Shown: one piece after another, positions 12,701 through 59,200 of the stretch
How the letters are laid out: the number at the start of each line of letters is the position of its first letter
Numbering within the stretch: position 1 is the stretch's first letter
DNA from: Psammoneis japonica
Taxonomy: Eukaryota
Assembly (NCBI GenBank): GCA_008632985.1
Contig: QPGO01000149.1
Span: 62,001 to 126,000, forward strand
Length of the DNA: 64,000 nt
Direction: 5' to 3'
The notes under the pieces: model-generated
What the model saw: only the letters and a program-made list of their open reading frames with translations
Database searches by the model: none
What the model was told of the DNA's origin: nothing
Made by a program: the position numbers and the translations under genes

Positions 12701-15700
12701 GAAATGTCGCCATTGCCAAAGTATGAAATGCCTAAATCTCCCCCACCAGACGAGCCGTTTGGGAATAAAGTCAGCGAAGTCAAGAAGTTTACAATGCCAC
12801 AATCACCTCCGCCCGATCCGATGTTTGGCAATCCCGTAAATGCAATGCCAAAGTATCGGTACAACGGACCGATGGCTCGCCCTGTCAAGGCGTCATTGGA
12901 TGAACCTAGAGCTGCTACCGACGAGATAGTGTCCGACATGCCGGATTCGCAGAGCAGTAGCATGCCAGTCTCGCTTCCGCCGGATGCTTTATTTGACAAA
13001 CCTGTGAAAGACAATCACGTGCTACCAAAACACAAGGTACCTGCATCACCTCCGCCAGACTCGATACTCGGTGAACGCGTCGAAGAAGTGAATGAGCTAC
13101 CGAGGCGTAGTATGCCCGCCTCTTCACAGAGACCAATGCCAACCGGACAGAGACGGGACATCGCGAAATCTCTTTCACCTGATGCACTTCCGCCGGATGC
13201 TCTGTTTGACGAACGCGTGAAAGCGGTCCACGTGCACCCAAAGCATAAAATGCCAGCTTCACCTCCGCCGGACTCAATACTTGGTGATCCCACCAAAGAA
13301 GTGAAGGAGCTACAAAGGAGAGATATGCCTGGCTTTCCACAGAGATCAATGCCCTCCGGGCACGCGAAATCTCTTCCACCTGATGCACCATTGCTACCTC
13401 CCGATTCTCCGATTCGTCCGATTGTTGAGGGAGCACCAAATTATGTGCTACCAGGGTCACTTGCACCTGATTCACCTAAATGTGATATTCCTTTCAGCAA
13501 TGTTTCTCCGTTACCCAAGAAACCTGTCCCGCTAAGCCCTCCACCTGATTTGCCAAAATGCGACACACCCCTTAGCGGCTCCTATACGGCACCCCGATAC
13601 GTTATGCCAACTTCGCAGGGACAGCCACCTGACGAACTGCTCGAAGCGAATAGAAGTGCTCCAAGAGCTTCGAATAGAATGCCAATTTCAGAGGGGCAGC
13701 CTCCCGACGAACTCCTGGAAGCAAATAGAAGTGCTCCGAGCACTAACAATAGGATGCCAACATCTCCGGGGCAGCTACCTGATGAAGTGCTCGAAGCGAA
13801 CAGGAGTGCTCCGAGCGTTACGAGTAGCATGCCGTCTTCACGAGGGCAGCCACCTGATGAGCAAGGCGGAGGGATTAGAAGTTCCAAGTTGCCAATGAAT
13901 AGAATGCCAACTTCGCAAGGGCAGCCACCTGATGAGCAAATCGGAGGGATTAGAAGTTCTGAGGTGTCAATGAATAGAATGCCAGCTTCGCAAGGACAAC
14001 CACCTGATGAGCAACTCGGAGGGATTAGAAGTTCTGGGGTGTCAATGAATAGAATGCCAACGTCTCCTGGGCGACCACCTGATCAGCAACTCGGAGGGTT
14101 TAAATTGACGGGGTGTCAATGAATAGAATGCCAACGTCTCCTGGGCAGCTGCCTGATGCGCCACTGGAAGAAAATCGAGATTTCCTTGGTCCTGATGATA
14201 TTGGAATGCCGCTACCTAGAAGATTCGTGCCAGCTTCTCCGCCTCCAGACACGCCAAAATGTGATTCGCCGCCACTTAACGCCGAAGGCCTACCAAGGCG
14301 CAAGATACCAGCGTCCCCACTTCCTGATGCGCATTTTTTGCGGGAAGGCAGGTCAATACCGTTGTGGGTATCGCCTGGCACGGATGAGTATCGAGCGTAT
14401 GCGAATGCATTGGCAACAACAAGGGAGCCAACGTCGACGTCGCCGCCGCCTGACTCTTCCCCTCTCTCGCCAGATGATGACGAGGTCTCGGCAGCTCTAG
14501 AGTATTTCTTGACGACGATGGCAAATGACCCTGAGTTTCAGAGATTGAGCTTGAAGCAGCAGATTGCTACCGCGGTAGCTGCTGTGACTGGCGACGGTGA
14601 AGAACATGATGACCTGACTCTGTCATGGGAGGGAACTGCTGATGAAGTCGCACAGTCAAGTACGAGTACGGACATCGGCCAACCCGGGGTATCTGATAGG
14701 GGTGTTCTTCAAGACCAGGCTTCCTTCTTGACTCCCAACGAAGAAATAGTGAAGAGTCTATTCCAGTGGGTAACGACGAGAAGAAATCGGCGAGCATGAC
14801 AGCAACTGAGTTGAAGGAAGTAGTCAAGCCTGTAGAGAAAATGCCAGAAGCAGCCTTCCTTGAATCTGGCAAGAGCGCCGAGGTCGCTCAACAGGGGAAC
14901 GCCGCTACCGAAAAGAGCGACATTGATTCAGCAGATGAGAGCTCGGAATTTTCTTCCGAGGTCGCCACAGACACCAAGGAAACCGTGCCATTGAATACGC
15001 TCGCAGAAGAAGCCGACGAAGAAGACAGAGATGCACCAAGCATGATTCCAGAAACAGTTTTGTCTGCGCGGGATGAGGAGGAATCTGTAAAACAAGAGCT
15101 CGACCACTCATTAGAAGGGAACGAAGCGAAAGCGCGAGTAGAAGTGGAAGCTGTATCAGAGACGGCTCCAGTTGTTGACGATAGGGCCATGGAGACAACG
15201 CCAATAGAAGCCGACGAAGAACCAAGCATGATTCCAGAAACGGTTCTGTCTGCGCCGGATCAGGAGGAATCTGTAGAAGAAGAGCTCGAGCCCTCATTCG
15301 ATGGAAATGAAGCGAAAGCGCGAATAGAAGCGGAACTTGTATCAGAGACGTCTCCAGTTGTTGACGATAGGGCCATGGGGACAACGCCAATATCTGTAGA
15401 GGCAACAAAGGCGCCAGTGGAGTTACCCAGGCCAGTTATTTCAACGGAGGCCGAGTCTTCACGTGACTCGAGCATGGATTCTCTTGACGACGAATTGACA
15501 GCCTCATCGACTGCCGGTGAGAATCGGCAAGTAGATGCGGAGGGATCAAAAGCTAAGGTAGTTTTGGAGCCTCCGAAGAATGCCGAAACGCCTCCCACGC
15601 TTGACAGTGCCTCGGACAAGAGTAAAATGCCGTCACCGAAATCAAGCAAGCCGAAGATGTCTGTTACCGAGAAAGACATTGGACAAGCATTGCCCACCAA

Positions 15701-25046: not shown

Positions 25047-25292
25047 ATTACCAGTGAAAGCCCGGCTTGAGTAACAAACGTATTCATGTCAAACAGAAGT
25101 AGCAAAAATTACCTAATGCTCAAGACCAGAGGTATTGAGACGTCTCGTGACATGTCTCTTCTTCACAGATTCACCGCGTCTCCCCAACTGGTGTCTCCTT
25201 CCCTGCCATAGCCACTTAGTGATATGATACTCTCTACACGCACATCTCGTTCTACGGTCTTATTACAAAAGTTTCTCCACTTTTTATAAAGT

Positions 25293-26138: not shown

Positions 26139-26349
26139 GATGAACGATGTAGTCTGGTTTATGGTGGATGTTTGTGCTTGACGGTGTTGGCATCGCGTTG
26201 CTCATCGCGTGTTGAATGTTTTGGTTTTTCGAAATTTTTGGCTTGACGCAGAAATGACGTGTTCAACGAACTTTACGGATGGACGGACGGACGTGGTTGA
26301 GCGCAAGGAGGGCGGGAGCGACGACGGGGTGCCGTGTGGCGATGCCATT

Positions 26350-28560
26350 CACATTCTTGTGGTCTGCTTTGACAAGAGACAGGAAACAGGAGACAGTGCA
26401 GACACGACAAGAAGTTGAAACTGCAGCGAGAGACCATGGCAGCTGGCAGTGGTTGACCTCACAGGAAACAGCTTGCTGAAATCACCAACACAGGCGCACG
26501 GCATTGACTGGCCTGTCTTTGAGTCAACAGGAAGAGGAGGAGGAAAGCAGAAAGCCCATCTGTGCCTCTGAGATTTTTGAGCTGAGATGTGAGTTGAAAG
26601 TGCTTTCCCCGTGGTCACGAAAAAAATGAACTCCTGGCTTCTAGCTGTTGTTTTTCTTTCAATCTGCCGCCGCTGCCATGGCAGCCTGAGCTTGGTGGTG
26701 CTGTTGCCAACCAAAATGCAGCAAATCTGTGCATGAGACAAGAAAAAGGAGATGTGTTGCAACATCAGAGCTGCACAGTATGTTGTTGCATTGTTGAACC
26801 CAGCGGCTGTCATTTTTGGGCCAAGAAGCCCAAAAATGAAAGTGCGCCTCATGTGCGCTGCTGCTGATTGCATGCGTCAATGCTGGAAAGTTGGCTGGGC
26901 ACAAACAATTGCAGCGAGAAATGGTCTTCAAACAAGATTGACAATTGTGGGCCAATCTGCTGGCTCCTCTCTTTCTAGACAGCATCAAAGATGATGCCAT
27001 GGAAAGAGCACCCTCCAGCATGAAAAAAGCTGTCAGCACACTTGACAGAAGCCAGAATGTGGTGTCACACATCTGTGCTGTTGTCATTTTGAAAGATGTG
27101 GAGAGCTCGCCATTTTTGTTGTTGTTGACAACAACAACAGAGTTTCAGGCCTGGGCTTGTCTCCTTGTGTTTTTCCTTGAGTGAAAACTTTGCACAGCTG
27201 CTTGTTTCCACCCACGTTCCAGATTGTACAAGCCTTTGAATCATGTGCAACATGCGGCCACTGACAAGAGTTAATGTGTCACGGCGACGTGTTGCAGCCT
27301 TTAAATGTCACAAAGGGCGTGACAAAAATGACCTTTTGTCTGCATGCATGCTGCATTGTGAATTCACAGCGGAGTGGCACATCGCAACCACCAGGCAGGA
27401 GGCCAGGGGTTCGAAACCCTGAGTGGGAGTTGTCTGCAGCAACGTTGATCACTGTCGAACGCGTAAAACTCTGTGCAGTTCTGTATGTTCCTTCGTACGT
27501 ACCCACACTGTTCCGCCAAAACCGTGCAGTGTCAGTGCACGTTAGCAAAGAGCCGCACGGATGCGTGACACATGGGGAGGAGTGCAACATGCAGCCACTG
27601 ATGAGAGTTGGTGCATCACGGCGACGTGTCACAGCCTTTAAATGTCACAAAGGGCGTGACAAAAACAACCTTTTGTCTGCATGCATGCTGCACATGTTCA
27701 ATGAACATCATGCTGGCAGCAAATCACAGCAGCATTGAAAAGAGCTTCTTGAGTGGCTTGATGGTCTTGGTGTGATGCTCGTGCCACTTCTTGAAGTGCA
27801 GCAAAATGACCACATTTTTGGTCAGCTGATCTTTGTCACTCTGCAGTGCCTTTCATCTGCACAGTGCAGCAATCTTGTCCTTGGAAATGTTCTGGCAAGT
27901 CTCTCTCTCTCTGCTTTGCCAGCTCTTTTGCAGATTTGTTGCACACACCACACCAGGGCTTGCCAAAGTTCAACCCTGTGCTCCTGTCAGCAAATTTCAT
28001 GCCAGTGGAGCACTTTGCTGTTAAAAAAAGATGAAGCCGCCCCAGGCTTGACTGTGCAGCACTTTTCAATGCAAGAACAAGTTCTTGAATTGGCGCGCTT
28101 TCAGATCTGTTTTGTGCACCATTTCGCTCTCTTTGTCATTGCAACATCTTGGGCACCCAGTGTGCCTTGAGCACCCAATGCCCAAGAACATCACTGTCCC
28201 AATTTTGGTGTCATGCATGTTGTGAAAAACAGTGCAGACATTGTGAGCTGGTGCTGGTTGAAGAGCTCAGCCGCCCGCTTCAAATGATGAGTGAGAGAGC
28301 CAAACAGCGCACACCACACCTGGCTTGCCCTCTCCTGCTCAATCAGATTTAAGCCCAGCAACCTCCAGATGATTGTTTGGATGACATGGCATTTTTTGTG
28401 TGACACACACTTCCAACTCAGCTCTTTGCTGCTTGCCGCCAAAATCATGCCAGTCATCGTTGCACACTGTGCTGCTGCCACATCAGCAGCCAGCAGAAGC
28501 CTGGCTCTTTTCACCAATGCTGAGGACACTTGATTTTCTCTGCTGTTAATCCCCACTCTT
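26350..28560. other. CpG- and TpA-depleted degenerate block A
   Basis: By eye, CG and TA are nearly absent and TG/CA abundant; no intact gene; hosts the TRIM-like element. Boundaries approximate. Confidence 0.8.
27246..27692 (+). mobile_element. TRIM-like miniature LTR retroelement (447 bp)
   Basis: 110-bp direct repeats 27246-27355 and 27583-27692, each TG...CA with ~10-bp inverted ends (TGCAACATGC...GCATGCTGCA); polypurine tract GGGGAGGAG 27574-27582 abutting the 3' LTR; 4-bp flanking duplication CATG (27242-27245, 27693-27696). Confidence 0.8.
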
Positions 28561-28820
28561 TGAGCAGCTCCATAGAGCCTTTGCGGAGGCCCAACATTGC
28601 CGCCACAGCAGGGACTCTCGCCAAGAGCGCGTGGCCGCACCGCACTCGAGCGAGCCGTTTGCACAGTGTGACGTCATCCTCATTTTTTGATTGAAGTTGA
28701 GATGAGGCTCTCGGTTCGCCGCGCATGTTTCTTGGTCGGTTCTTGGCCATGCACCGTGCAAAGCGATGGAACCACATTTCATTTATGTCGTCCGTTGTTC
28801 CACGATCTACTTTTCAGACA

Positions 28821-29671: not shown

Positions 29672-30220
29672 GTTTCTCCTGTTGGCAAAGATTTCCCAGA
29701 TGGCGGATGCTATGAATGATGATAGAGATATAGAGAGATGTAGATGTGGCCTGTCCAAGATGATAATTTTGCGACCGTTCCAACTGCTCGTCATAGCATG
29801 GGGCTAGAGGTTGCCTCCATTCAAGCGGCTGTGGACGGCAATGGAGAATGACTCAAGAACAGAGTGATTTAAGATAATGAATAATGCTCCTCACTAACTT
29901 CAAAAGAGATTATGCCGTGTTTAGAATGCGTTACACTGTACCTCTTCTCTCTAGAGCTAGTAGAGACAGGCGCAAGTGGGCTTCGTCTCGTCTGTGCGTG
30001 CTGAATTTTTGATCATCGACTGCTTCGACTGCTTCGACTCTTCAGAAACCGCCCGAGCAACTTTGCGATGGTGGCTAATAGAATGCCGCCGACCGCACAG
30101 CCTGTTATGATGACGACAAGATTCATCTTGCGGACCACAACAGCAAAAGAATCTCCGGCCATACTCTAGTGTACAGTGCACGGAGGATCTTAGGTAAGCA
30201 TTAGCTGGATTTGCGCAAAG

Positions 30221-30886
30221 ATGCCTTCTGTTTCGATCAACGTTTGGCTTTTCTTCTGCACCCTTGCTGTCGGGGCTGTATCGGCCCTCGAGGTTGGCGA
30301 CAACCTCTGTATCCAGGGATATGTCATGGATTATTACTGCATTGACAATGTTCGAATGATCGACAATGGCAAAAAGACCCTTGAAAAACCCTTCGACCAC
30401 TCTGTTCATTGCTTGGTGGACGTTTCTGATTGTTACAACTCGGCATTTGAAGTCCTGACTGATCCTGCAACAGACGGAGCGCTCTACACTCGTGGCTACC
30501 GACTCACTGAGGAATCTAAACAAGAAGTTATGTCTCTTGCTTTCAGTGTTGGGAGCTGCAGCAGATGCGTCAATGGATATGACAACAGCAAGCTCGCAAA
30601 TGGATTTCGAGCCGTCTTCAACGTTACGGTGGTCGACCTGAACGAAGATGACGACGACACCCCTCCCACTGTCGTGGTCCATAGTCAAGAATACCCCGAT
30701 CCGACGGATACGAATCCCTGCCTTACCGTCTTTGGCTTAGTTGAAGGTCAAGTTATGGGCAACGATCCGAACATCACGAATCCAGACGATGATGGCTCAG
30801 ACGACGACTCAGCTGCCGGTTGGATTGGGGTGAGCAGTTCGTTTGTCGCCACTTGTTTCATTGCACTAGCCGGTCTTTTGTTGTAA
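30221..30886 (+). CDS. Secreted/membrane-anchored Cys-rich protein, paralog 1 (intact)
   Basis: Signal peptide, domain ALEVGDNLCIQGYVMDYYCIDN...PFDHSVHCLVDV, hydrophobic C-terminus (GPI-like); homologous to 38273 and 41583. Confidence 0.85.
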   Translation: MPSVSINVWLFFCTLAVGAVSALEVGDNLCIQGYVMDYYCIDNVRMIDNGKKTLEKPFDHSVHCLVDVSDCYNSAFEVLTDPATDGALYTRGYRLTEESKQEVMSLAFSVGSCSRCVNGYDNSKLANGFRAVFNVTVVDLNEDDDDTPPTVVVHSQEYPDPTDTNPCLTVFGLVEGQVMGNDPNITNPDDDGSDDDSAAGWIGVSSSFVATCFIALAGLLL

Positions 30887-33800
30887 CGAAACAATAATAG
30901 AGAGTATGCACAACACCTCTAGAAAAGTAATGTGATGGGTCTGCAGTTTATCCAAGTTGACTTTGATTGGTCTTTTTCACGGTACCTGGTACCCTCTAGT
31001 TTATATCGTGTACAGCTGGGCATTGCTGTAGGGCCCTAGGTAGAATTATGGCTATGTACCGAGTGGAGTGTCAACTAAACAGCAGCTCTGAAGGGGTGAC
31101 AGGTGCCACTCAAAATCCCGGGATGGAACCCTGTGTGATTCGCAATGTCGGCCATTTCACACCAGAGCTCCACTTTTCCTCTGTTGCGACCACCACATGT
31201 TCCACTCTTCTTAACCTTGTTTCTATGAAAGCTGCTGAGCCCAAAGTGACCAACTTTTGTTTGTTGCACTTGAACTCTTCCATAGAAACCATGAAAAATT
31301 ATGAAAGACATTTGGAGTTGAAATGCTTGATGTCGCTGGTGCCATTGCCAATCACAGAAATGCAACAACATCCAAGGAATGTGCAAGCGCTTGGCCAAAG
31401 AGGACCTGCTGATGCTGCACCACTGCCACCAGTCACATGGTGGAGTGTGGGAGAAAAAGGTGCTTGAATTGTTCTTTTTGATCCTGAGCATCCCCATAAA
31501 TTCATGTGCACAATTGCTGGAAACAACCACTCGCTGTTGCACGAAAAACAGCACACAATGAGGTCTCTCTTGTGTTGTCAAGATCTGACAAGAACTGAAT
31601 GGCTCAGCATTGTCAATGCATCAAATGTCAACCATTGACTTGTTGGGGCACTTTTCCACTCTTTGTTTCTTTGCCATGAATGGCCCCAGGCTCTGCATGT
31701 TTTTTGCCTCTTTGCCTTGGTGAGGTTGCTCTTTGTTGGAATGTCTTTGTTTGTTTGCAGCTCAGATGCATGATTGGCTGCTTCATGTGGCTTACATCAC
31801 CATTGTTTTGAAGCTCTCTCTGGGAGGGCAAGCCTTTTCTTGGTTTTTAACTGATTTGGTGGCATCTTGACATTGTTGTGAGGAAACCCTGAGATCACAG
31901 CTCACCTGTGCCAGAGCATGACAGCAGATTTGCAGTTGGAAGTGCCCTGTTTCACACAACAAGAGGTGCAGCACAGCAGTCAAAATTTTCAACAGACAAA
32001 GTGGTGGACAAAAGAGGGAGGGCAGGCCTTTGAAATTGGCAAGAGACACAATGCCATTGTTGCAATCAGGTGAGATGCCGTCTGCTCTTGTCACCAAAAC
32101 ATGCTCCAACTCTTCTGTCACAAAGCAAGCAAATTTTGCTTTCTTGCCAACGAAACCTGTGGTGGTCCACCAGCAGAGTTGAGTGTTCAACATGAAAGAA
32201 CACATCTGAGCTGTTGACACATGTGCCATGTGCCTGTTCTTTGTGAAAAACCAGCCAATCTCTGTTCATGTGTGAAGTTGATTTTGTTGGGGGGGGGGTG
32301 GCTTGATTGGGTGAAAATTGCCACTGTGGAGGACAAAGTGTCCATTGAGCTCATGTGCCTCACATTTCAAAATCATTGGCAATTCAGGGCATTAGTGTGC
32401 AGCCTGGCTTGTGCTGTGGACAACTCTGTGGCAGTTGCCCAAGGAACTGGAGCCCACGCCAATTTGGAATGCCCACCGCCCCAGAGCAGGCTCTCTGTAA
32501 ATCCCCCAGATGATTGTCACATGTGCCCCTGCATTTGCGGCAGCTGTGCTGCCCTGCTTCCCAGAAGATGCCATGGTGTTGGAAACACCAGGTGAGGCCA
32601 CTAAGATGGTTGCCATGCTCAACAACATTCTGCAACAGTTCTTTGTGGTGATGATGCATGTGCCATGCTGCTGGCTGCAGTGTTGGGAGGCCCAGCACCA
32701 GCATCCTTTAAAAGCACCAGGGGTGCCAAAAAGGGTGCTGCTGAGGCTTGTGCCAATTCTTGGCCTGAAAGTGCTGTCTTGTTGTCAGTGTCAAATGACT
32801 GGCCTGCCAACAATGTGCCAGTTGCAAGTGTCATGCACTGCTCTTTGCACTGATTTTTCCAGTTGCAGCTCAGGCAGCACCTGTGAGATCTCCCTGGCTG
32901 CTGCTCCCTGGTTGTGATGACCCATTTCCCCACACACCCAATTTGCCATTGTGGCTAAAACTTTTGTGTCTGACTGGCTCTTGGGCTCACATCTTCCACA
33001 ATTTTTGTCTCAACCAAATGAGAAAAAAATGTGCACAACAAAAAAACCATTGTGATGGCCTTGTTTCTTTTGCCTTTGAAACTGCAATTTTGTCAGTGTC
33101 TTGTCATGCCAACAACTTTGCCTTTCTGGTGCAGGCAAAAATGTGTGGGCTGATCTTGCTGAAGTGAGTGAATGGGAAGAGTGGGCAATCTTGTGACTGC
33201 AATGGGTTTGATGCCATGCTGTGTGCTGCTGCAAGGAATGTTGCTTTCAAACCAAGGGGAAGTGAGCACAGGCAGCGCTGTCAAATCATTTTCTTTAACA
33301 AGAAGGCATCACAGCTGTCTCAAACAAAAGTGAGCAGCACACCCAAGAAGACCCAGCACAGACTCTCTCTCTCTCCCTCTCTCTCTCTTGGCAGCACAAA
33401 TGTGAGGGGAGTAAAAACTGTTTTCTGTTGATTGGTCTGCTCTGTGCCCATTCTTTTTCTCTTTTTTGCACATGGGAGAGCAGCTCACACACACCTCCAC
33501 CTCACTCTGCTGCTCTGCTGCTGTTGTTCATTGTGTTGTTGTGTTGCATGTTTTTTCCATTGCACTGCCAGGAATGCACTGCATGCCATGCCACCACAGT
33601 CCTTGAGAATGAACTGCACTGCACCCTTGTTGAGTTGTAGAGAATTGCCTCAATGTTGGTGTCAACTGGCACAAGCTTGAGGACATGTTGTTCCCAAAGA
33701 AATGCAGTTTGCGGACAACATGACCAAAGCAACAAACAGCACACCTGCTGCACAACTCCACTCTTGTGCTGGAGATTGCCCTGATTTGTTGGTCACCATG

Positions 33801-35599
33801 CATGGTGGGAGCTCTTTGAGGCTTGCCACAGAGAACATGATGCTCAAACTGCACCCCTCTCCCCATTGTCAAGAGCATTTCCATCTGATGGAGATTCTTT
33901 CTGAAACATGGGTCACCAGCCCAAAACCCATGCCAGGCTTTTTCCATGAAATGCTGCATGTGTGGGAGGATGGGGGTCATGTTTTCAGCAGGAACTCCTG
34001 TGTCACATTGAAGCCATGGGAAAGTTGGGTCATCTGGCCATGGCACAGCTGCTGCATTTGGTGATGGATGCAATGCCACAGCAGGTGCAGCATGTCTTCA
34101 CAAACAACTGTGCATGGTGGAAGAGCAGGGCGGCCAGAGAACCTTTGTGGCTGAACAAAGCAAAATGTGTGCAATGAAGACATCACACATGAGAAACAAT
34201 GACCAGAACAAATTTGCCAGCCAGCTTGGCCAGAGACCCTAATTTTCTGGTCAGAACATGGTTTTCCAGCTGGGATGTGCCAGTTTTCTGGCCACAATTT
34301 TGCTGGCAATTTTTTTGTGTTTTTCCACCACCACTTTCATGCAAGCAACTTCCATGGGAGAAGTGGCAACAAAGAAACCTGTGGCAAAATGCAAATGATC
34401 TTCACAGCATGTGCACGAAGTCACAAAAATGTTGTTGTCAAAGTGACCTCAGCTCTTTGTGAGGTCTCTGATGCAAGTGTTCAATTGGGTTTCTGGCCCA
34501 AAAATGCATGGCTGCTCTGCACAGTGCAGTGCAGCACAAGGATGCTGCAATGCTCACACAGCAGAAGAGCTGACTCAAACAGCTGCATCAGCATTGCATG
34601 ATCACTGACAGCTTTTCCAGTCACTGACTCAAATGCCACGGAAATTGTGTCGGACATGCCAGATTTTTCTGACATGATGCCTTTGACATCATTGCAAAAA
34701 TGTTGAAGCAAAGAGGAAAGCACAGGATGGCAGCACTTGTGCAACAAGTGTGTGCAACTGAGTTCTTTCTAATCACTTTTTGCAGCAGATCAACAACAAA
34801 TGCACATCAAAATGTTGCAAGGCAATGTGGTCAAAGCATCTTGAATGACACCCAAATGACACCCACTGGCATGATCACTTTGTGCTTCACAGGTGCATGC
34901 AAGACACCCAAACTCAGATGAATCATCAAGAAGGCAAGCTGTTTTGTGCACATGTTGAAACAGGGCTGCAACTTTGACAAATGCATGTCATTTGATGCTG
35001 AGAGAAGTTGGACAGCACACTGAGCAGAGATGGCTTGCCTTTCCCAGATGTTGACCAGGGTGTGGCTGAGCACACAAGGGGGTTTTCTGAAAGCAGTTTG
35101 GGCCCAGGGGAGAGCCTTCTGTTGTGGCACCCTGTGCTTGTAAAGAGCAAGAAGTGCAAAGGCGCACACCCATGACAATCAATTGTCTTGGCTGTGTGAA
35201 ATTGGCTGTTGAGGAATTCAACAAGAAAGTGGAAACTTGAGGTGGCTTGAGCAAGAGAGTGGCAGCACATCATGATGCAAACAAGTGTGCATGGAAAACA
35301 TGGGCAAGAAAAAGAAAAGGAAAAAATGACAAGCATCCTTGGCAACAGAAAAGTCATCCACTGGTGGTGCTGGTGCTGATCATGGCAGTTTGCATGCCTG
35401 CAATGTCACTCTTTCAAATGATGAGTTGACTGCCATTGTTTTGGCAACTTCTGGGATGACACAACCACGCAAATCAAAACCTTTTCAAAATGCAGATGAT
35501 GGAGAGGATGCAAGAAAACAATCAAATTGATGGTTGCGTTTGCTTTTCACAATGGATGGAAACAAGTGGCTGACAAAAGAGACAATTCTCTGACAACCT

Positions 35600-37900
35600 T
35601 TGCATGCCAAACAATGCCCATGTCATTTGATTGATTTGCTGGCATCTTGTGATTGTTCTTGACTGTGCATTGAAGAGGTCACCAAGAAGGAATGCTGCAT
35701 GGCTTTGCTGCTGTCAGCTTGCAATTAATGACCTCAGCTTTGCAGATTTCAACTTCACAAAAAGTTGTCATGCCGCAATGGCACGGCATCACATCTTGAG
35801 AATTTCAACTCCTTTTCACATCCCCCAACCAACCAAGAGGAAGTGGGAGATCCACCAACATTTGAGGCCCATCCAAAGATGAAGCAGAAATCATTGAGTT
35901 TGCAATGTCAAAACTTTCTTGTCCTTCAACCGAGGTTGCCACAGACCATTTGCATGAAACACTGGTGGCACTGGAGTTCTCATGGAGAAAGAAGAGTGGC
36001 TGTTGTGAGAATGAGGAGGCCAAAAACCCATGGATTGCCTCTCTTCCAGCACAGTTGCCAACTGGGTGTGCCCTTTTGGTTTCTGGCATGGACAAAACAA
36101 AAACATGCATTGTGTGTGTTGATGATCATGAACACACCAACAATGCAAGGCTGAGGAATGAGAGAAGGGGCCCCTGACAGTTGACAAAAGAAGAGCAAAC
36201 CTTGTGTTGGACAGCTTCCACAAAAGCAACTGCAATGGACAATGGACCTGGTTTAAGCTGAAGCTCTCCCAACAAAAATGGGACACAAATGCCCAGCAGC
36301 AAAGTCTTTGCTGAACATCACACAGACACTGTTGTTGACCCTGCACATCCAAGCCTTGTGCCCAAGCTGTCTGCACAATTTGAAGGAAGCAAGTGTGTGC
36401 ACAAGGGTCCCAACACAAAGCAGTTCATGACACTTGGACAGGACAATGCTGTTTTCAAGCAGTGCTTGCCAAACACAAGCAGCTGGACAGGTCCAAAAGG
36501 TGAGAGGGTGCTGCCACCCAAAGATGATGCAGAGGATGCAATGCAGTTTCTGTTCCAGTGTCTCAAGGCTGGCCTTGTTTCAGATGAAGACATTTCTGAA
36601 GAGTGGCTCAAAGAGATGAATGACTGGAGCAGGCAAATGCTGCACTGCTGCTGCTGCTGCAAGAGAAGTGTTTGGTGAGAAGCAACATGAGCCAGCCTTG
36701 AAAAAGAGTCCATTTCTGCACAAGATCATGCATGGAACAAACAATGGCAGATTCTGGAACTGTGATTTCATGTTGGTTCAATTGGAATGTTGTGTGTGAA
36801 GGACTGCTTGAAAATGCTGCGTTTCTCACAACTTGAGCACCACCACTTCCCATTTGATCATTCTTGCAGGCACAACAAGCAGAGAGAGTGGATGGACCAA
36901 CCTGTCACAAGCACATTGTGAATGCAGGTGTTGTCAGCAGTTAGAGCAAGATGCATCATGTTGAGATCTTTCAGACAGAGGGGGGCTTTCTCCAGGTCCC
37001 ACCATGCTCAGGCACAGCTGGCATGTCATCTGCAGGGCACAAGCACAAACAATGACACTCAGCAAGGATGGCTGGGGATGACCACAATGGATGATGACAA
37101 GACAACAAGATGCCAATAAATGTGATGCACCTGTCAAGGATCAATCCAAAACTCAAAAGCTCCTGTGTGATGAAATTTCTCTGATGAGCTTTTTCAAAAA
37201 ATGTCAAGACAACATCAGGGAGGCAAGAAGAAGGGTGGGCTGATTGATGTGGTAAAGAGCAACAATGCACCTTTCAAAGAAACCACTCAAAAGGTGAAGC
37301 ATGGATGGGTCAACAAACTGAGAGGATCAAAGCAAATTTGGTGTTGCAAGCAAGAAGGTGGGCGGGCTGACCCAGACAACCCTGGAAAATGCACTGCAGA
37401 TGCTGGCACAAAGAGGGCAAAGACAGAGAGATTGACAAGCCAACATCTCTCCTTTGCTTGATGTCCACTTGCAATGATTTTATCAACTGAAAGATGTTGT
37501 TGCAAATGACAGGTCACAAAATGGGGCAAGACAATTGACAGAGTGGCTGCCCACGAGCATTGCCCAGAAGCGGCAGGGGAGGGCAGCGTTGAACACCCTT
37601 GGGGACTCACAAAGCAGCACTGTGATTTGCAGCCTTCATCAAGGAAGAAAAGGGGAAACAAAACTTTAGAGAATTCAATGTGAGCAAAGAAAGTGCTTGT
37701 GGCTGAAAGGGCGTGTGCTGCAACCGGCTTTTTTGACAAGCTCCTGACAAGAACACATTTGCACTCACATGTGGCTCTTTCACAGCTCACATCTCTTGAG
37801 GTCAAGGAGAGAGCCATCTCTCCAGGGACCATTGAAAAGCTTGTCAAGAAGTTCAAAATGCACCGCAGTGCAATTGACTTTGACAAGGGTTTCATTGTGA
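35600..37900 (+). mobile_element. Degenerate DDE transposase, Tc1/mariner-IS630-like
   Basis: Ordered motifs across frameshifts: GQDNAVFKQ...SWTGPKGERVLPPKDD (36436-36530), SPFLHKIMHGTNNGRFWN, PFDHSCRHNKQRE (~36850), HGWVNKLRG, HCPEAAGEGSVEHPWG (~37560), IEKLVKKFKMHRSAIDFDKGF (37831-37893). These resemble the QDE / FDHSCGH / HCELAGEGIEYSWG transposase pattern. TIRs not found; 5' end uncertain. Confidence 0.7.
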
Positions 37901-38272
37901 GGACGCTTGCGTGCAAACAGGCAATTTTTTGTAGGGTAAAAAAGGTTTGTGCAGCTGCTGGCACACTGCATGAATGCCATCAATGATGTTGCTGACAATT
38001 TTACTTCGGCTTTTTGCATGGCTAACAAATTTTCTAACCACTGACGTGGGATTGACACTGTGTGCTGTACGACGTCGTCATTGCTCAATTTTTGATTTCA
38101 TTCATTTGCCAATCTTGAAATCGCTTGTTTCGCTGCATGTGGTTGTTCTGAGTTCTGAAGTGCAAGAGGTCCTTTCCATCCCCTTTGCATGGCATGTGCT
38201 GCACACTTGCCCCAGTCTCTTTGATGACAGAGCTCAGAAGTTTGGCGAGGGCTGCAGTGACTGACGAGGACC

Positions 38273-39133
38273 ATGTTCATCAGCAACAAGAAGAAATTGT
38301 GGTTCTCCCTCTTTGCCATTGCAGCCACTTCGACCTCTGCTCTTGAAGTTGGTGACAACCTGTGTGTTCAAGGTTGTGTTGTGGACCATTGCTACATTGA
38401 CAATGGTCCAATGATTGACAATGGAAAAATGACTCTTGAAAAGCCCTTTGACCATTCGGTGCATTGCTTGGTGGATGTGTCAGTTTGTTGCAGCAGCCCC
38501 TTTGAAGCATTGACAGATCCTGCAACAGATGGAGCTTTGTGCACTCATGGCCACTGTCTGGATGATGATTCCCAACAAGAGATGATTCAACTTGCTAAAA
38601 GTGTTGGAAGCTGTCACGAATGTGACAATGGATGCAACAGTTCCAAGCTGGATGCGCGGTTCCGAGCCATTGTGAAAGTCACGGTTCTAGATTTGAACGA
38701 GAACGATGATGATGCTCCTCCTCTTGTGCGAATGAATGAACAACAAGATGCCAGTTATCTTGGTGATGATCCATGCCAATCAGAGTTTGACATGGAGGAA
38801 GGCCCGCAAGTTTCTGATCCAACAACTTCTGCACCTGCCCCCAAACTGACTCCTCCTCCAACACAAAGTCCAACAATGGGTTCCACACCCCAGCCTGTGC
38901 CTGGCCCACCTCCTTCACCAACCACCAGCCCATCCACTAGACCTGTGACCACCATGCCCTCCTCAGCATCTCCAACACCAACTGTGATGCCCTCCTCAGC
39001 ATCTCCAACACCAACCACAATGCCAACAATGCAAAGTGCAGTTCTGACAGACCCGCCATCCATGGCCACCTCACAGCCAATCTTTTGGACATCAGTCATC
39101 CTCTCCACTGCACTCTTCACTTTGATGTTGCAA
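38273..39133 (+). pseudogene. Hypermutated paralog of the 41583/30221 surface-protein gene
   Basis: Colinear with 41583-42866 including flanks; 7 of 8 Tyr in the N-terminal domain changed to Cys/His, several CGN Arg to His/Gln/Cys, stop TAA->CAA at 39131-39133; internal deletions in the P/T/S stalk. Confidence 0.85.
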
Positions 39134-41582
39134 CAGGTTGCATCGCTTGCATTGGAACTGTTGGTTTACACCCACAGATGTTTTGTGCTTTTCCTGTGCA
39201 TCATTTTATTCATTCTGCTTCTGCCTTGGACTTCTTCACATTCAAGACATGCTGCCATGCGAATCAAATGCTCAAAGTCTTCAATCCCCCACCAAACGGT
39301 TTCTGCTGTCGCTGTTCATCTTTCCTTTCCTGACATTCAATCAATGACTTTTTTGTGGCCAAATCTAGCAGATGAAGCAACATGCACACAGAAAAAATCT
39401 GTGTGGTTGCTGACAGAGTGTGACACAGAGACAACATGAGCAAAAGGAGCTGCAAGGAGCAAATGACCTCCTCCTCCCACATGAAATTGCCTGCTGACAA
39501 TTCTGGTGCATTCCTGTGGCTCCAGCATGGGTGTGCAAACTGCCTGGCTCTGCAGGTGTGGCTGAGCCTTTCCAATGGCAGCACATTTTACAATCTTTTT
39601 CAGAGTCGGCATTCAGAAAGAGGTGGTCCTCCAGCTGGGAATCATCATGCAAGCAGGGAAAGCTGATTGCTGTCACAAGACAGCTCACTTTGAAGGACAG
39701 TTGTGTTGCTCACAGCACAGTGCAATGATGAGAAATGCCAAATCACTTGAGAGAGTGTGTGATGTGTGGCCCAACTCAAGTGTCAGCATGAGAGACTTGG
39801 CCAGTCTCCATGCTCCAGAGGACCTCACATTGACCATTGGGTGATGGCATCCACATTGCTGGCTGCACAACATGGTGGTGGGTCCATCAACAGTGGGTGC
39901 CACAAGATTTGGAGATTTCCAAGCAAACAAGACAAGAAAAAGATTGCAAGAGAGGAGAGCACTTCTTGGGCATTGACAAGAAATCTAAGAACTCCAAAAT
40001 GTGCTGTGCTGTGTGCAGCCTCATTTCAGTTGAAGAAAAAAAAGCAGCCCAGAGCGCTCACTCTAGAACCATGCAGAGTGGCTGCATGTGAATCTCTTCC
40101 AGCAAAGATGCTGGAAATGGCAATTCAGGAAAAATGAATGCACCACACATGTTGGTTTTGCATGTGCAAAAGTTGTCATTGTCTGGGTTTTGTGACAGCC
40201 AAAAGAACAACCAGAGATGTGCTGTGATGGCATGCCAACAAGAAGAGAAGATCCTGGATCCCCAGGAGCTTTTGATGGCTTGCAAGAGAAAGCTCTCCAT
40301 GTGAAAAGGAGAGAGAACACAGGACACCAGTTGTCAGCTGAAAGATGATCCATCGAAACCAATGTGCATTGTGCAACACTTTCTGCAGCTGCAATTTGTG
40401 CATGCAATCTGCCTGCTGTCTGCACAAAACAAATGTGCACACAAAGTTCTGACAGCAAACACATGCTTTTTTAGCCAGACTGGAGGCTTGCCAAAGGGCT
40501 TTTGTGCGCCCCATTTCCTTTGCACTGGCTGCACTTGCAAAACACAACACAGCAACTGCAAAACAACAAGTTTGACCATGTCAACCAACCAAAAGACAAC
40601 CCCACCTTCTTGTGCAGCACCTGGAAAGAGGCCACCTTTTTAAATGATGTGACAATCTGGCTGCCACAGCACACAAGTTCATCGTGGTTCGCAGTGTCAC
40701 ACCCAGCTGCCCCAGCACCGTTGTTCATTGTTGTGCTTTCATTTTGTTTGTGTTGTGCAATGTGTCATTGTCATTGTTGTTGTTGTCATTGTTTTTGGCT
40801 TGTGCAGGGAAGACACAGGTCATGAGTGTTGAGAAATGATCCTCACCAGTCTGGCAAAGAGGGCCAGAGAAGCAAAGCAGAAAACAGACTGTGCGGCTGA
40901 GGGACAGCAAGCCATGTGGCTCCCCAGAGTGGTGCATTGTGCCAAGGGATGCTGTGGGAGAGCAACCAAGTGGACATGTGCATGACAAGGTGTGGCTTTT
41001 TCAGTGTGAGGTCACTCTCCATTCTTTGCCATGAGCTTGGCGCCATGGCAGTGTCGTTGACGGTTGGTGTGTTGTCTCACTTGGCTCCAAGGCATCTGTT
41101 GGTGTGTTGTCACTTGGCTCCAAGGCATCTTTTGTTGTGAGAGCTGAGCAGTGTTGGATGGCAAAAGGACTGCTAAGTGTATCGTAGGTCACATCACTGA
41201 CAACGAAAGAGATGGTGTCTGCATTGCCTCCAACATGTCTTAGCGGATGTGTCATGGTGCCATTCCACCGGCACAGCAGACACAGGATCTCCGTCAACAC
41301 GCGGTTCGAATGTGTCCTATTACTGATGTCCGTAAGTACGGAAATTAGGCCAATTTATATGTTGGTGGATATTATTGTATAAAAAAGCCTTTCAGGGTGG
41401 GAATGTGCTCACGCATTTTCGCATTTTCCGCTCAAGCAATCTTTCGTCTTTTCGCAGGCCATGGGATCGTTCTCAAGCCCGAAAGGAGGCTGTTCTCCTG
41501 TTTATCGCATAGCGTGTGCTGCACACGTAGTCTCTTTGACGACGGAGCACAGAAGTTTGGCGAGAGATATCTAACGAGGACC

Positions 41583-42866
41583 ATGTTCACCAGCAGCATG
41601 TTGTGGCTCTCCCTCTTTGCCATTGCAGCCGCTTCGATCTCTGCTCTTGAAGTCGGTGACAACCTCTGCATTCAAGGCTATGTTATGGATTACTACTGTA
41701 TTAACAATGTTCAAATGATTGATAATGGGAAAACGACTCTTGAAAAGCCCTTTGACCATTCGGTACATTGCTTGGTCGACGTTTCCCTTTGCTACAACAC
41801 ACCATTTGAAATACTGACGGATCCTGCATCAGACGGAGCTTTGTACACTCGTGGCTACCGTCTGGATGATGATTCCCAGCAAGACATGATTCGACTTGCC
41901 AAAAGTGTCGGAAGCTGCCGCGAATGCGACAATGGATACGATAGTTCCAAGCTGGAAGCTGGTTTCCGCGCCGTTATGAAAGTCACGGTTCTAGATTTGA
42001 ACGAGAACGATGATGATGCCCCTCCTCTTGTACGAGTGAATGAACAAAGAGATGCTAGTTATCTTGGTGATGATCCATGCCGATCAGAATTTGACATGGA
42101 GGAAGGCCCGCAAGTTTCTGACCCAACAACTTCTGCGCCCACTAGGAATCCTACACCAGCTCCGACTACCTCCGAACCGACTCCTCAGCCATCTACCAAG
42201 ACACCAACTGTAAGTCCAGTCACTAGTCTTCCCACCACAAGCTCAACACTAGGTCCTACACTCCAAGCAACAGAAGATCCGGCACCGGTTCCAACGCCTC
42301 AACCCTCGCATTCTCCCACAGTCCAACCATCACAAAGTCCAACGATGGGTTCTACACCCCAGCCTGTGCCATTCCCAACTCGTTCACCAACCACCAGCCC
42401 ATCCACCAGTCCGGTGACCACCATGCCGTCCACAGCACCTCCACCACCAACTATAATACCAACGGTACAAAATCCCGTTCTGACAGACCCGCCGTCCATG
42501 GCCACCTTGCCACCAACTAACAGCCCATCCACTACGAGTCCAGGGACGGACAGGCCATCCACGGCAACTCTAATGCCAACTATGGCCAATACGCCACAGA
42601 GTCCCGTCACGGTGAGCCCCACCGTAGTTCCAACCATGTTGACAATGACGGCGACTCCAACGTCCACGCCAACATCAAACTCGCCAACTTCTCCGACGCA
42701 AGTCGTTTCCGAACCGCCAAGTATGGTGACTGCGTCACCTACTAGCTTTCGTCTACCAACATCAAGCTTAACGGCGGAGAATACATCTGGTGGTGCGCGG
42801 GTGGCGGGAGGTTTCTTGTGGGCATCAGTCGTCCTCTCCACTCTACTTTTTACTTTGATGTTGTAA
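41583..42866 (+). CDS. Secreted/membrane-anchored Cys-rich protein with mucin-like P/T/S stalk, paralog 2 (intact)
   Basis: ATG 41583 with signal peptide, same N-terminal domain as 30221, PTxxPT repeats, hydrophobic C-terminus. Confidence 0.88.
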   Translation: MFTSSMLWLSLFAIAAASISALEVGDNLCIQGYVMDYYCINNVQMIDNGKTTLEKPFDHSVHCLVDVSLCYNTPFEILTDPASDGALYTRGYRLDDDSQQDMIRLAKSVGSCRECDNGYDSSKLEAGFRAVMKVTVLDLNENDDDAPPLVRVNEQRDASYLGDDPCRSEFDMEEGPQVSDPTTSAPTRNPTPAPTTSEPTPQPSTKTPTVSPVTSLPTTSSTLGPTLQATEDPAPVPTPQPSHSPTVQPSQSPTMGSTPQPVPFPTRSPTTSPSTSPVTTMPSTAPPPPTIIPTVQNPVLTDPPSMATLPPTNSPSTTSPGTDRPSTATLMPTMANTPQSPVTVSPTVVPTMLTMTATPTSTPTSNSPTSPTQVVSEPPSMVTASPTSFRLPTSSLTAENTSGGARVAGGFLWASVVLSTLLFTLML

Positions 42867-55872: not shown

Positions 55873-56449
55873 ATGAAGACCGGGGTGTCAGAGCAGAACG
55901 TGCCCGGAGTTGCAAAGCGACAAAGACTGTAACACTGAATGCCTTCTGGACAACAATAGACCTGTTGTATTCACTTGATTTATAATACTTCGTATTCATA
56001 AAAGACAGTCACTCGAATGTTAGACAGAAAATTCGAAGATGCACGACCAAAGTCGATCTTTGGCAAAGGCTGAGACAGCAGGCACCAGAGGGAAAATGCG
56101 CAATGTCAGTTCGGAAGCGGCGGCGGGAGATAGACGAGCAAGTTGAATACAAATAAAAGAAGCATCACTCACGCTGCCAAAGGTGCATCTGATTGTTCGC
56201 TGTCGATGAGGATGGGGATCAAAAAATGATGAGATGATTTTGAATGACGAGAAAGAAGTCGGGATTGGTGGCGTTTTTGAAGTGGCACATCTCTACGTGC
56301 GACAAAGGAGAGAAGTCTGTCCCGGATGATTCAACCCGCCACCCGACCTGCCATGCGGCCCGCGACCCACTGTCTGTGCAGTGTCCCAATTTCAAATGTT
56401 CGTGTTTCATGTTCGTCGTTGCCTTTGTCTGCCTGGAAACGCGTCATCG

Positions 56450-59200
56450 CTGGCACTTGCATGCATGATGAACACGCACTGCAAGGGAAGGAACTGATCA
56501 AGATTCGATTTCCCACTGCTGCTTGTGTGCGTTCACTCCTCTTGTTGCTTTGCACAATGGATGGCAGCTGAAATGCCTGACAACATGCGTGTGATCCAAA
56601 GGGCTTGTGGCATTGCACAGCAAGTCCAGTGCAAATGTGGTGTTGCTTTGAATGAAGGGGGGCTCCTGATGCTTGCTGATGTGTCGGAGAGATGGAATCT
56701 GATGCTGATGTGACAGAGATGGCAAAGTGTCATTTCTCACACTAATGTTGAAGGACATGTGAACTTGGGAATGGCTCAGATGAATGCACTCAAGCTTTGG
56801 TGGAGTGGATTTGTGACAAGATGCAGAGGTGCAGGGGGCAAAAATTGATTGCAGCTGCTGAGGTGATGCCCCGCAGAAGCTCACAAGCAAAGATTGTTGA
56901 AAAGGAGACAGAGTGGGCATCGAGACAAAGGTCAGCTCTCTGGCCAAGTTTGACCCCATTTGCTGTGGCACGCATGAGAGGAGTGCTTTCTTGAACTTGC
57001 TGTCACAGAAGATTGGAGCAATGAAAGCCTCCATTGTGTTGCCCATGCCAAACAAGCACCTGAGGAGTTTGAAGATGACAAAGAGCATCGCGTGCATCAG
57101 CCACCACTTCAGGGCACTGTGTTTTGCAAAAACAACTGTTGTGCACCACACCACATGCTGAAAGACTTCTTTTTCAACACCCTTCCTTGGATGGGCTTGG
57201 ATTTCCTGTTTTGATGCATTGGAAAATGGCTGCAAAGCTTTTTGAACTTTGGCCAACAACCATTGCAATGGTCAAGGAGAACTGAACAAGAGGACAGCTG
57301 TGGCTGCAAGTGTCGTCAACTCAAAACCATTCATTGTCAGAACAAAATGGTTTGTCTGCTCAAAGCCATGTTAGCTGAGTTGACAAAACCACTCATTGCT
57401 CTCAACAAGGGCCTGGACTTGTGCTCCTTGGAACATCAAAAGTTGATGCTTTGTTGAATTGCATTGAAACAACCAGTGCAGAGCTTGTGGCCTCAAAGAC
57501 TGTCCTCAGCCAAACCTTCCTGACCAATTTCTCTAGAGCAGCAGGTGCACATTTCTCAGAAGCTCAAGTTTCTCATTGTTTGCACTGCTCAGTTTGAAGC
57601 ACAGCATTTTGCCAAGCACAACAAAATGTCAAACCTGTTGAGAGGTGGACCATCAGGTGGACAAGGCCATGGTTGTGACAGATGGGGACCTGGTGGACAA
57701 GGACATGGTGGTGGTGGCGGCAGAGGTTGTGCTCATGGCACATTTTGTTTGCGCCAAACTGTCATCAACAAAGTGGGTGCATCCAACCCAACCCATTTGT
57801 TTTTGTTTGAGAAGTGTGGTCATTTGCATGTGCCCTGCCTTCTTCAAGCATGCAAGTGCATGAGTGGCAGAGGTGCTGGAGGAGGTCATGGTCACAGAGG
57901 AGGACATGATGCAGGATGTGGTTGCAATGTTTCCAAAGTTGAGCCACTTGAGTTAAAGCCACCAGAGCAATGTGGAGCTTGTGCTTGCTTGTTCTTGATG
58001 GTTTGGGGTGCCAGCATCTGTTCTTGTGATGCGTGTGCATTGAGTGCCTCCTGTGCCATGCATTCCAGCATTGCAGCTGCTGTCAGTGCAGCCCCACCCA
58101 GCCACTTCCATTTCAAGAAATGTCAGTGTTGTGACAAAGCTCAGCATTTGTGCTGCATTTGTTGTTTCAACTGCAAATCAAGCTTTGACTGAGCCTGAAC
58201 ACTGTGCAACAAACAAGAGTGTGGTGTGCCCATGTGGGTGCATGTTGTGCAGGCAGGTTGGTGCACTCACATTGTGACAATCCATCAAGGTGGCAGTCAA
58301 ACACACTCCCAGCAAGATGAGTGTGCCACCGGGAGTGACCATGGGCATTTGAGCTCAAGCACTTGCTTGAAGAAGGCGCACATCATTGAAGTCCAAAGCA
58401 TGATTCTGTGTCCACAGAGCATCACAGAAAGAGGGAGAGGTTTGTTTTTAAGACCTGCATGCCATCGGCCCAATGGCCCAGCATCAGACTCCTTCCCACT
58501 GATGTGCTCAAGGAAGGATGGATCACACACCAAGCAGGCTGCACTGCAGCTTTTTGTGATGTTGAAACTTCTGAAGGGACTCTGTGGACTTCTCAAGCAG
58601 TTGATGAATGCTTTCATGAGAAACCACAAGCCAGTTTGCTCAAGCATGGATGAATGCCATTGGCCACAGACCCTTGTCTGCACTTCAAGGAAGGTGTGGT
58701 GTGCACTGTGCAAGTTGACGACACAGTGTTCACTCACAGGAGCGTGTGCGTTTGCATCTGAGGAGAAGACTCGCAAGCCAGGAGTCACACTGACAATGAA
58801 CACATGAACATGCACCTCAACCCAGGGATGAAGGAGAAGTTGGGAACTCCATTTCTACCCTCCAGCCTGGTCTGATCAACAAGGGAAGGTCCTGCGCACT
58901 GCCCATGTGGATGATGCAATGGCATCTCTGCCCCAGTCAGCTCTGCCTGAGCCTGTTTGTGCCAACACGGACAGCCTGCCCTTCTGCAAACCCTGCAATT
59001 ATCATTCCGTAGTTGGAACATTGATGCACTTGACATTTGCCATAATTTCTAGAGAATGACTTTGAGCAAACGTCTGTCTACCTTTGTGTTGTTGCATGCC
59101 AACCTCCAAGAGCTTTGTTGCTTGCATTGCAAGCTCTGCATTGTCATTCGACTGTGCTGTCAAAAGAAGAATCAATCAAGAGAGCTCTGGACTCCAACGC
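56450..59200 (+). mobile_element. Degenerate Copia-like LTR retrotransposon fragment (gag/protease), CpG/TpA-depleted block C
   Basis: GWAWISCFDALENGCKAF*TLANNHCNGQGELNKRTAVA (57189-57305) resembles diatom Copia gag (..GR.A...HYNG.GELNKR); GGQGHG repeats are consistent with mutated GGRGRG; AHVGACCAGR (~58230) resembles the protease motif DSHADTCCAG. No LTR, RT or integrase recognised. Confidence 0.6.

Follow-up and report, generated by a model that had tools for sequence, protein, structure and literature searches.

Three blocks within a 64 kb stretch of DNA from Psammoneis japonica (NCBI GenBank assembly GCA_008632985.1, contig QPGO01000149.1, positions 62,001 to 126,000; hereafter the window, numbered from its first letter) have lost almost all of their CG and TA dinucleotides. 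The question raised by this locus is what process could erase two dinucleotides from several kilobases of a chromosome while the adjoining DNA keeps them. An initial annotation of the window had proposed hypermutation that acts by chromosomal domain and not on every repeat copy, and had taken repeat-induced point mutation (RIP) as its frame of reference. We consider it most probable, at roughly 60%, that silent domains of this diatom genome undergo region-limited, transition-only hypermutation of TpA and CpG by two co-located processes that are targeted to the domain.

The loss was assessed by observed/expected (o/e) ratios for CG and TA in 1 kb windows and 200 bp bins, and by 200 mononucleotide shuffles. 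Block 2, the largest of the three, retains 67 CG (o/e 0.12) and 41 TA (o/e 0.06) in the 9,851 bp from 31300 to 41150, a total of 108 against 1,233 ± 27 in the shuffles, and is correspondingly rich in TG (1,182, o/e 1.93) and CA (1,101, o/e 1.79) at a G+C content of 0.473. The near-total loss of both dinucleotides over about 10 kb that had been described for this region is thus borne out, as are the similar blocks announced at 26.35–28.56 and 56.45–59.2 kb. Block 1 (26350–28580, 2,231 bp) holds 49 CG (o/e 0.37) and 16 TA (o/e 0.11), values that fall to 0.24 and 0.06 when an inserted repeat is left out, and block 3 (56450–59200, 2,751 bp) holds 27 CG (o/e 0.17) and 11 TA (o/e 0.06). The remaining 49,167 bp carry 2,670 CG (o/e 0.94) and 1,855 TA (o/e 0.56), with TG at 1.19, CA at 1.13 and a G+C content of 0.480. 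Every 1 kb window outside the blocks (89 of 89) has 72–120 CG and TA together, compared with 3–29 in block 2 (n = 18), and 200 bp bins have 0–7 in the blocks compared with 10–30 around them. Within the blocks, 1 kb windows show CG at o/e 0.02–0.2, TA at 0.03–0.1, TG and CA at a mean of 1.8–2.1 and G+C of 0.45–0.51. Throughout the 64 kb, 300 bp windows with at most one TA occur only within or at the edges of the three blocks. The depletion is real and far beyond chance.

The missing dinucleotides have been replaced rather than deleted. The four pyrimidine–purine steps together amount to 237 per kb outside the blocks and 243 per kb in block 2, where CG and TA are down by 81 per kb and TG and CA are up by 87 per kb, and the G+C content of the blocks (0.473–0.489) brackets that of the rest. 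Because both the pyrimidine–purine total and G+C are kept, the blocks resemble rewritten DNA of host composition more than foreign DNA of odd composition. TG and CA are nearly balanced in block 2, and a runs test detected no strand-coordinated clusters of TG or CA in any block (z about 0; 0.29 for the 1,182 and 1,101 of block 2), although its power is low at saturation. Among the CGs that survive in the blocks, GCGC is enriched.

The direction of change can be read from a gene family with one member inside a block. Self-comparison of the window reveals three plus-strand paralogs, at 30245–30666, 38187–39136 and 41507–42869, of which the middle one lies in block 2, about 3.3 kb from the copy at 41.5 kb; block 2 fills the space between the two expressed-looking outer genes. 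The in-block copy shares 83% nucleotide identity with 41460–42143, yet 93% identity when bases are coded as purine or pyrimidine, so that the excess differences are transitions. The 27 TA of the intact copy have become 15 TG and 9 CA in the block copy, with 2 kept and 1 changed otherwise, and its 42 CG have become 14 CA and 9 TG, with 12 kept and 7 changed otherwise. TA is thus the more fully converted (24/27 versus 23/42; Fisher p = 0.0035). In the reverse direction, 12 of the 14 CG in the block copy are also CG in the intact copy. Changes in the alignment are spread over A>G (23), T>C (17), C>T (23) and G>A (22). With the third paralog as outgroup (30194–30886; 679 three-way sites), the block copy has 41 derived changes (31 transitions), with TA>TG and CG>TG/CA foremost, and the intact copy has 25, without bias directed at CG or TA. 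In the 457 bp domain shared by all three, the block copy has 10 CG and 3 TA, compared with 24 and 18 in the gene at 41349 and 25 and 14 in the gene at 30194, as expected from the earlier statement that only the paralog inside the block is mutated.

The in-block frame (38261–39436, 392 codons) is still open, as is to be expected of a process that removes TAA and TAG. It has many Tyr-to-Cys/His and Arg-to-His/Cys changes and retains 61.5% protein identity with the intact copy, and we think that this family member is now a pseudogene. The family has 14 relatives, those with names being from Cylindrotheca (best named match Cylindrotheca closterium, 56% identity). The mutated copy is a host gene, as its family is conserved in diatoms. 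The initial annotation had a host gene next to a transposase destroyed collaterally; the host gene stands, whereas the transposase label is not supported, as no credible Pfam family was found.

Mutation of this kind follows a sharply bounded domain and does not depend on homology within this window. One of three paralogs is hit, and the duplication at 45.3–46.4 kb is untouched, as are the coding tandem repeats at 13.6–14.2 and 19.7–20.3 kb, which had rightly been noted as keeping CG and TA. Purifying selection on the intact copies, raised earlier as another explanation, does not fit these data: noncoding DNA outside the blocks is also normal, including the spacers that abut block 2 (18 TA in 30887–31076; 9 TA and 10 CG in 41174–41348), and the changes derived in the intact paralog lack a CG/TA bias.

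To ask how far the two losses coincide, CG and TA change points were fitted separately at each edge (Table 1). At four of the six edges TA loss extends 110–375 bp further out than CG loss, and at three of these there are zones with at most one TA in which CG is ordinary. The few TAs that survive are also of a distinct kind. In the blocks 33 of 59 lie in the context Y-TA-R (Y, pyrimidine; R, purine), compared with 231 of 1,525 outside (chi-square p = 1.5e-16), and the context R-TA-Y is nearly gone (2 of 59 versus 466 of 1,525). The TA-only edges, the fuller conversion of TA in the paralog and the Y-TA-R survivors indicate that the CG and TA processes are separable. We therefore favour two co-located processes, TpA hypermutation and CpG decay, over their main rival, a single machinery.

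Evidence that the blocks changed in place comes from a public sample that contains this stretch, whose runs are coded X1 to X3 here; X1 is possibly the window's own source, and the summed word depth of its contigs is not a copy number. Over block 2, X1 contigs differ from the window by 6, 0, 2 and 1 letters in 5,497, 1,022, 852 and 3,219 bp (9 in 10,590 bp). X1 contigs also run across block 1 at both edges and across block 2 at the right-hand one, and summed word depth is 65–111 in block 2 compared with 57–79 in the flanks. As these contigs carry the same block sequence, the blocks are no assembly artefact. In block 1 the window and X1 represent two different versions. Among the 40 of 99 differences that were listed, 17 events fall in block 1, of which 15 are transitions, compared with 8 of 19 in its flanks (Fisher p = 0.006). 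In 12 of these 17 events the step is CG or TA in one version and TG or CA in the other (7 CG-type, 3 TA-type and 2 doublets), and each version has private conversions. At 28117–8 and 28154–5 one version reads CA and the other TG, as would result if an ancestral TA or CG had been struck independently in the two. Because private conversions are present in both versions, the process acted on chromosomal DNA, and more than once, after the versions had separated.

The contents of the blocks offer little to identify an original target. Pfam searches with 118 stop-to-stop open reading frames (ORFs) of at least 70 aa yielded no credible family, all matches having E > 0.003 and falling below curated cut-offs, and the same was true of 18 frames read through with stops as X (six from block 2, twelve from blocks 1 and 3), in which a Keratin_assoc match of 18.6 bits was rejected as under its cut-off. 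Block 3 has frames of 257 codons (minus strand) and of 427 codons with 2 stops (plus strand) that exceed chance length at a stop density of 0.03 per codon. The former (56501–57271) matched none of 82 candidates from a collection of 5.8 billion proteins, and the latter (57524–58804) matched none of 1.84 billion representatives. For a minus-strand ORF at 37290–37979, a language-model look-up returned nothing above 0.85, its recognition being low. Self-comparison in purine/pyrimidine code found no terminal repeat pair bounding block 2 or 3, and a purine/pyrimidine codon-phase model lacked the power to reveal ancestral coding frames. As a control, full conversion of a SecA exon was simulated; 16–18% of residues changed and 4–6 stops were added, and the product still matched diatom SecA (60–64% identity, about 700 bits). 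A transposase or reverse transcriptase would thus not escape detection because of hypermutation alone.

Block 1 is the only one of the three with a recognisable repeat, in which 111 bp direct repeats (27245–27355 and 27582–27692) surround a 226 bp part. Its summed word depth is 56,308, compared with about 60 in the flanks, and the RNA-like run X2 has a 226 bp contig of it. The repeat contains what we take to be tRNA-promoter-like A and B boxes (27368–27377 and 27408–27418); neither Rfam nor ARAGORN reported anything in block 1 or elsewhere in the window, and the repeat went unrecognised by them. It is probably a tRNA-derived short interspersed nuclear element (SINE) preceded by a truncated copy, and probably a very abundant, transcribed SINE of this diatom. 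Block 1 is mutated least in this repeat, whose internal part keeps 15 CG and 5 TA, which makes a later insertion of the repeat probable. The two 111 bp repeats differ by 12 transitions, including four TG/CA doublets. Their interpretation as a long terminal repeat pair that changed after insertion was dropped, and they are perhaps two separate SINE insertions. Of the transposable element (TE) remnants that the initial annotation had placed in every block, this short high-copy repeat survives, and the Tc1-like and Copia-like assignments are not supported, neither a Pfam family nor a homologue having been found.

RIP changes C to T only, creates TpA, lowers G+C, needs a duplicated sequence and strikes both copies, and it depends on a RID/DNMT4-type enzyme and a sexual cycle. 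RIP gives a high TpA/ApT and a low (CpA+TpG)/(ApC+GpT) index, and in block 2 both classical indices run the other way (TpA/ApT 0.03–0.10; (CpA+TpG)/(ApC+GpT) 1.97–2.29). TpA is destroyed there, A>G matches C>T in frequency, the blocks and the rest of the window have the same G+C, and among the paralogs and tandem repeats of this window duplicates are not mutated together. These observations show that the process is not RIP, and do not support that frame. The resemblance is limited to a transition-only, dinucleotide-specific, regional inactivation of non-genic DNA and to the presence in many diatoms of a DNMT4 related to the fungal RIP protein RID (PMC9998398). The same report describes methylation of diatom TEs via DNMT5a (PMC9998398). 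Decay of 5-methylcytosine in methylated transposons and heterochromatin resembles the blocks in changing CpG to TpG or CpA (23 of 42 CG in the paralog; CG o/e 0.06–0.37 in the blocks), in being confined to silent DNA and in sparing promoter-proximal CpGs. Unlike such decay, TA is lost here as completely as CG or more so, so CpG decay cannot be the whole explanation; a CG o/e of 0.06 with a sharp edge is also extreme for a passive process.

The closest known parallel is in Bigelowiella natans. Localized A:T-to-G:C hypermutation at TpA has been reported once before, in a 2026 preprint on this chlorarachniophyte (Mettrop et al., bioRxiv 10.64898/2026.01.13.699255). There, A>G or T>C changes, which fall on TpA, account for 210 of the 211 new mutations of an integrated giant-virus region and for 20 of 20 within a virophage region, at a de novo rate about 1000-fold over background in living lines, and 124 TpA-poor clusters are counted in the genome. 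An ADAT2-type deaminase is proposed, enzymes of this type deaminating both A and C in DNA (Mettrop et al.). The Psammoneis blocks share with that account the transitions from TpA to TpG or CpA on either strand (24 of 27 TA in the paralog; TA o/e 0.045–0.06, TG and CA 1.8–1.95), the discrete kilobase-scale regions, poor in TpA and rich in TpG and CpA amid normal DNA, and the many affected sequences that defy annotation. They differ in several respects. A diatom is a stramenopile and B. natans a rhizarian, on a different supergroup branch; conversion is near saturation here (TA o/e 0.045, compared with 0.45 in the giant-virus region); CpG is lost as well, whereas the new mutations of the viral regions fall on TpA and the word CpG has no occurrence in that text; and R-TA-Y is hit and Y-TA-R spared. 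No viral or TE protein can be recognized in our blocks, which have neither family nor homologue for a viral or foreign target and include one host gene copy and one SINE-like repeat. A full-text literature search found no diatom report of joint CG and TA loss.

In the mechanism that we propose, the blocks would be ordinary diatom chromosomal DNA, hypermutated after it was in place, and the targets would be the two self-complementary pyrimidine–purine steps, TpA and CpG, each converted to TpG or CpA. One process would be a TpA-specific A:T-to-G:C hypermutation of the B. natans kind, near saturation, preferring R-TA-Y and sparing Y-TA-R. The other would be CpG loss, for which the simplest route is deamination of 5-methylcytosine where silent chromatin is methylated. 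Both may be targeted by domain and not by sequence homology, the domain ending a few hundred bases short of active genes, and in block 2 the domain would have engulfed a copy from a tandem family of host genes and turned that copy into a pseudogene.

Several points weigh against this proposal, and some of them speak equally well for a single chromatin-guided machinery that attacks both CpG and TpA, with CG slower or blocked where unmethylated. Such a machinery might deaminate both C and A, or oxidize the two 5-methylpyrimidines, T and 5-methylcytosine. Within the window the CG and TA losses are both restricted to the three blocks; depletion in the block cores is nearly equal (o/e 0.058 for CG, 0.045 for TA); block 2 has CG and TA change points 9 bp apart at its right edge; among the differences listed, private conversions of both kinds separate the two versions of block 1; and the ADAT2-type enzymes mentioned above act on both bases. 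The equal core depletion and the 9 bp coincidence fit one machinery as well as two. Against one machinery stand the TA-only edge zones of 180–375 bp with normal CG, and the B. natans process, which runs without CpG changes. The strand lean in the paralog is also opposite for the two steps (15 TG to 9 CA from TA; 9 TG to 14 CA from CG), unexpected for one deaminase working strand by strand, although not significant. The edge zones could in part be natural promoter composition. On balance we regard the single machinery as possible but rather unlikely. Further reservations about our proposal are that one 64 kb window is its whole basis, that the enzymes, the role of methylation and the trigger, which the initial annotation took to be chromatin state or lack of transcription, are inferred, and that nothing viral or transposon-coding is recognizable in the blocks, unlike the B. 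natans targets, which makes a defence role presumptive. In addition, the divergence of X1 in block 1 (about 0.8%) is not above that of the left flank (about 3% over 400 bp), so that the comparison of versions is an argument from spectrum and not from rate, drawn from the differences listed.

The other explanations are much less probable than these. If the blocks were old repeats with partner copies elsewhere in the genome, their mutation could have been set off by homology in the manner of RIP; the high-copy repeat in block 1, the 1.5–1.8-fold summed contig depth at 36.3–38.3 kb, the RID-related DNMT4 of diatoms and the restriction of our homology comparison to this window all leave room for this. 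We nevertheless find it improbable, because two of the three paralogs and the tandem and local duplications have escaped mutation, because block 1 is mutated least in its high-copy repeat, and because A>G changes with unchanged G+C are foreign to RIP. Single X1 contigs of at least 90% likeness also tile most of block 2 at a flank-like summed depth, itself no measure of copy number. Slightly less credible still is editing before integration, in which retroelement or foreign RNA or cDNA was hyper-edited by an ADAR- or APOBEC-like activity and inserted already mutated. Such editing, which is used against selfish elements, consists of deamination-type transitions with neighbour-base preferences, the U-A preference of ADAR resembling the TA motif (Mettrop et al.), and the block edges are sharp. 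It acts, however, on RNA or single-stranded intermediates and is strand-asymmetric, whereas the changes here are chromosomal, balanced between TG and CA and unclustered by strand. The tract moreover includes a tandem host-gene copy with its upstream sequence, the two block 1 versions have different private conversions at the same locus, and no reverse transcriptase or element protein is detectable by Pfam, even in read-through frames. Least likely of all is an artefact of modified bases miscalled in sequencing or assembly. The run platform is not on record and X1 may be the window's own source sample, but exact-word X1 contigs reproduce the blocks at flank-like summed depth and bridge their edges, the conversions are clean on both strands, and the in-block gene copy shows the expected codon consequences.

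Table 1. Positions of the blocks, their edges and other features in the window.
Feature	Positions	Strand	Remarks
Block 1	26341..28584	.	2.2 kb between two divergently oriented genes; partly mutated
Block 2	31188..41183	.	about 10 kb; nearly all CG and TA changed to TG/CA
Block 3	56531..59198	.	2.7 kb
Block 1, left edge	CG 26341; TA 26161		
Block 1, right edge	CG 28584; TA 28784		
Block 2, left edge	CG 31188; TA 31077		
Block 2, right edge	CG 41183; TA 41174		
Block 3, left edge	CG 56531; TA 56155		
Block 3, right edge	CG 59198; TA 59000		
TA-poor edge zone	26161-26341		20 CG, 1 TA
TA-poor edge zone	28584-28784		18 CG, 0 TA
TA-poor edge zone	56155..56531	.	23 CG (o/e 0.96), 1 TA, TG o/e 1.71
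Less mutated zone inside block 2	37500..38900	.	CG o/e 0.36, TA o/e 0.11; overlaps start of in-block paralog
High-copy repeat in block 1	27245..27692	+	111 bp direct repeats around a 226 bp part
Second intact paralog	30194..30886	+	conserved diatom family member; outgroup
In-block hypermutated paralog	38136..39137	+	copy of host gene family
Intact paralog	41349..42866	+	signal peptide, Cys-containing domain, Pro/Thr/Ser-rich stalk, hydrophobic C-terminus; normal CG/TA
Coding tandem repeat, unmutated	13604..14170	+	CG o/e 0.69, TA o/e 0.53
Coding tandem repeat, unmutated	19650-20352		CG o/e 0.98, TA o/e 0.60
Local duplication, unmutated	45343-46393		normal CG and TA

The genes around the blocks place the window in a diatom nucleus. 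A SecA gene has its best named relatives in Eucampia, Chaetoceros, Attheya, Seminavis, Cylindrotheca, Mayamaea and Cyclotella (68–76% identity), and a gene for the cytosolic ribosomal protein S4e is also present; together with the Cylindrotheca relatives of the paralogs, these identify the window as diatom nuclear DNA. The best relatives of the SecA gene are nuclear-contig SecA proteins of diatoms. The gene (51819–54999, minus strand) is split into pieces of 583, 402 and 153 aa in two or three frames, with an overlap at 53329–53570, and so probably has introns. We also looked for similar blocks in 221 kb of metagenome sequence that surrounds SecA relatives at 36 loci, 33 of them diatom-like and most of them short and dense in genes, where no 600 bp window had a TA o/e below 0.2 together with TG and CA above 1.5, which is a weak negative.

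The proteins of the paralog family begin with a signal peptide and have a Cys-containing domain, a stalk rich in Pro, Thr and Ser, and a hydrophobic end. Some relatives of the family are fused to a cytochrome b561 domain (PF03188). From its sequence the family would be an uncharacterized, diatom-restricted secreted domain, and the b561 fusions hint at a cell-surface redox role. On the plus strand at 9995–22403 lies a chain of long overlapping open frames of 420–731 aa each, without a Pfam family and with tandem units of about 75 bp at 13.6–14.2 kb and about 261 bp at 19.7–20.3 kb; the chain resembles a single giant repetitive gene interrupted by short introns or frame changes.

Run X2 has contigs over the genes that neighbour the blocks (25191–26200, 28800–29887, 30087–30854 and 41437–43121). 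One of them has an 86 nt GT..AG joint at 29288–29373, which is an intron of the plus-strand gene at 28701–29887. None of the runs listed is recorded as RNA. Although X2 is labelled 'DNA?', it looks RNA-derived because of this joint and because it consists of gene-sized pieces only. The block edges lie about 140–450 bp from these contigs. X2 has no contig between 31004 and 41008, an observation that was not used for or against silence of the block, since a lack of coverage is no evidence here. In X1, contigs at 25296–25712, within a LON-domain gene, are about 3% off the window (12 mixed differences in 400 bp), and there are half-depth indels at 30933–31359, just left of block 2, which suggests two divergent haplotypes or strains around these positions; from 31.4 to 45 kb X1 is nearly identical to the window.

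A bolder proposal would unite these elements in a single chromatin-guided editing defence of diatoms, in which C>T and A>G changes together strip silenced DNA of CpG and TpA. It would be distinct from RIP and from 5-methylcytosine decay, homologous to the Bigelowiella TpA hypermutation and hence part of an old stramenopile–alveolate–rhizarian system, spreading from its first target into neighbouring host genes. We consider this doubtful.

The presence of a TpA signature in a diatom suggests that the process is widespread among marine algae. The diatom case is saturated, is coupled to CpG loss and has a flanking-base preference, and diatoms, with their tractable genetics, offer a system in which the enzyme may be found. 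The joint absence of CG and TA at unchanged G+C is a sequence signature with which silenced or foreign DNA could be mapped in algal genomes. Such a process can destroy a neighbouring host gene, which would be a price paid for genome defence and a way in which pseudogenes arise rapidly.

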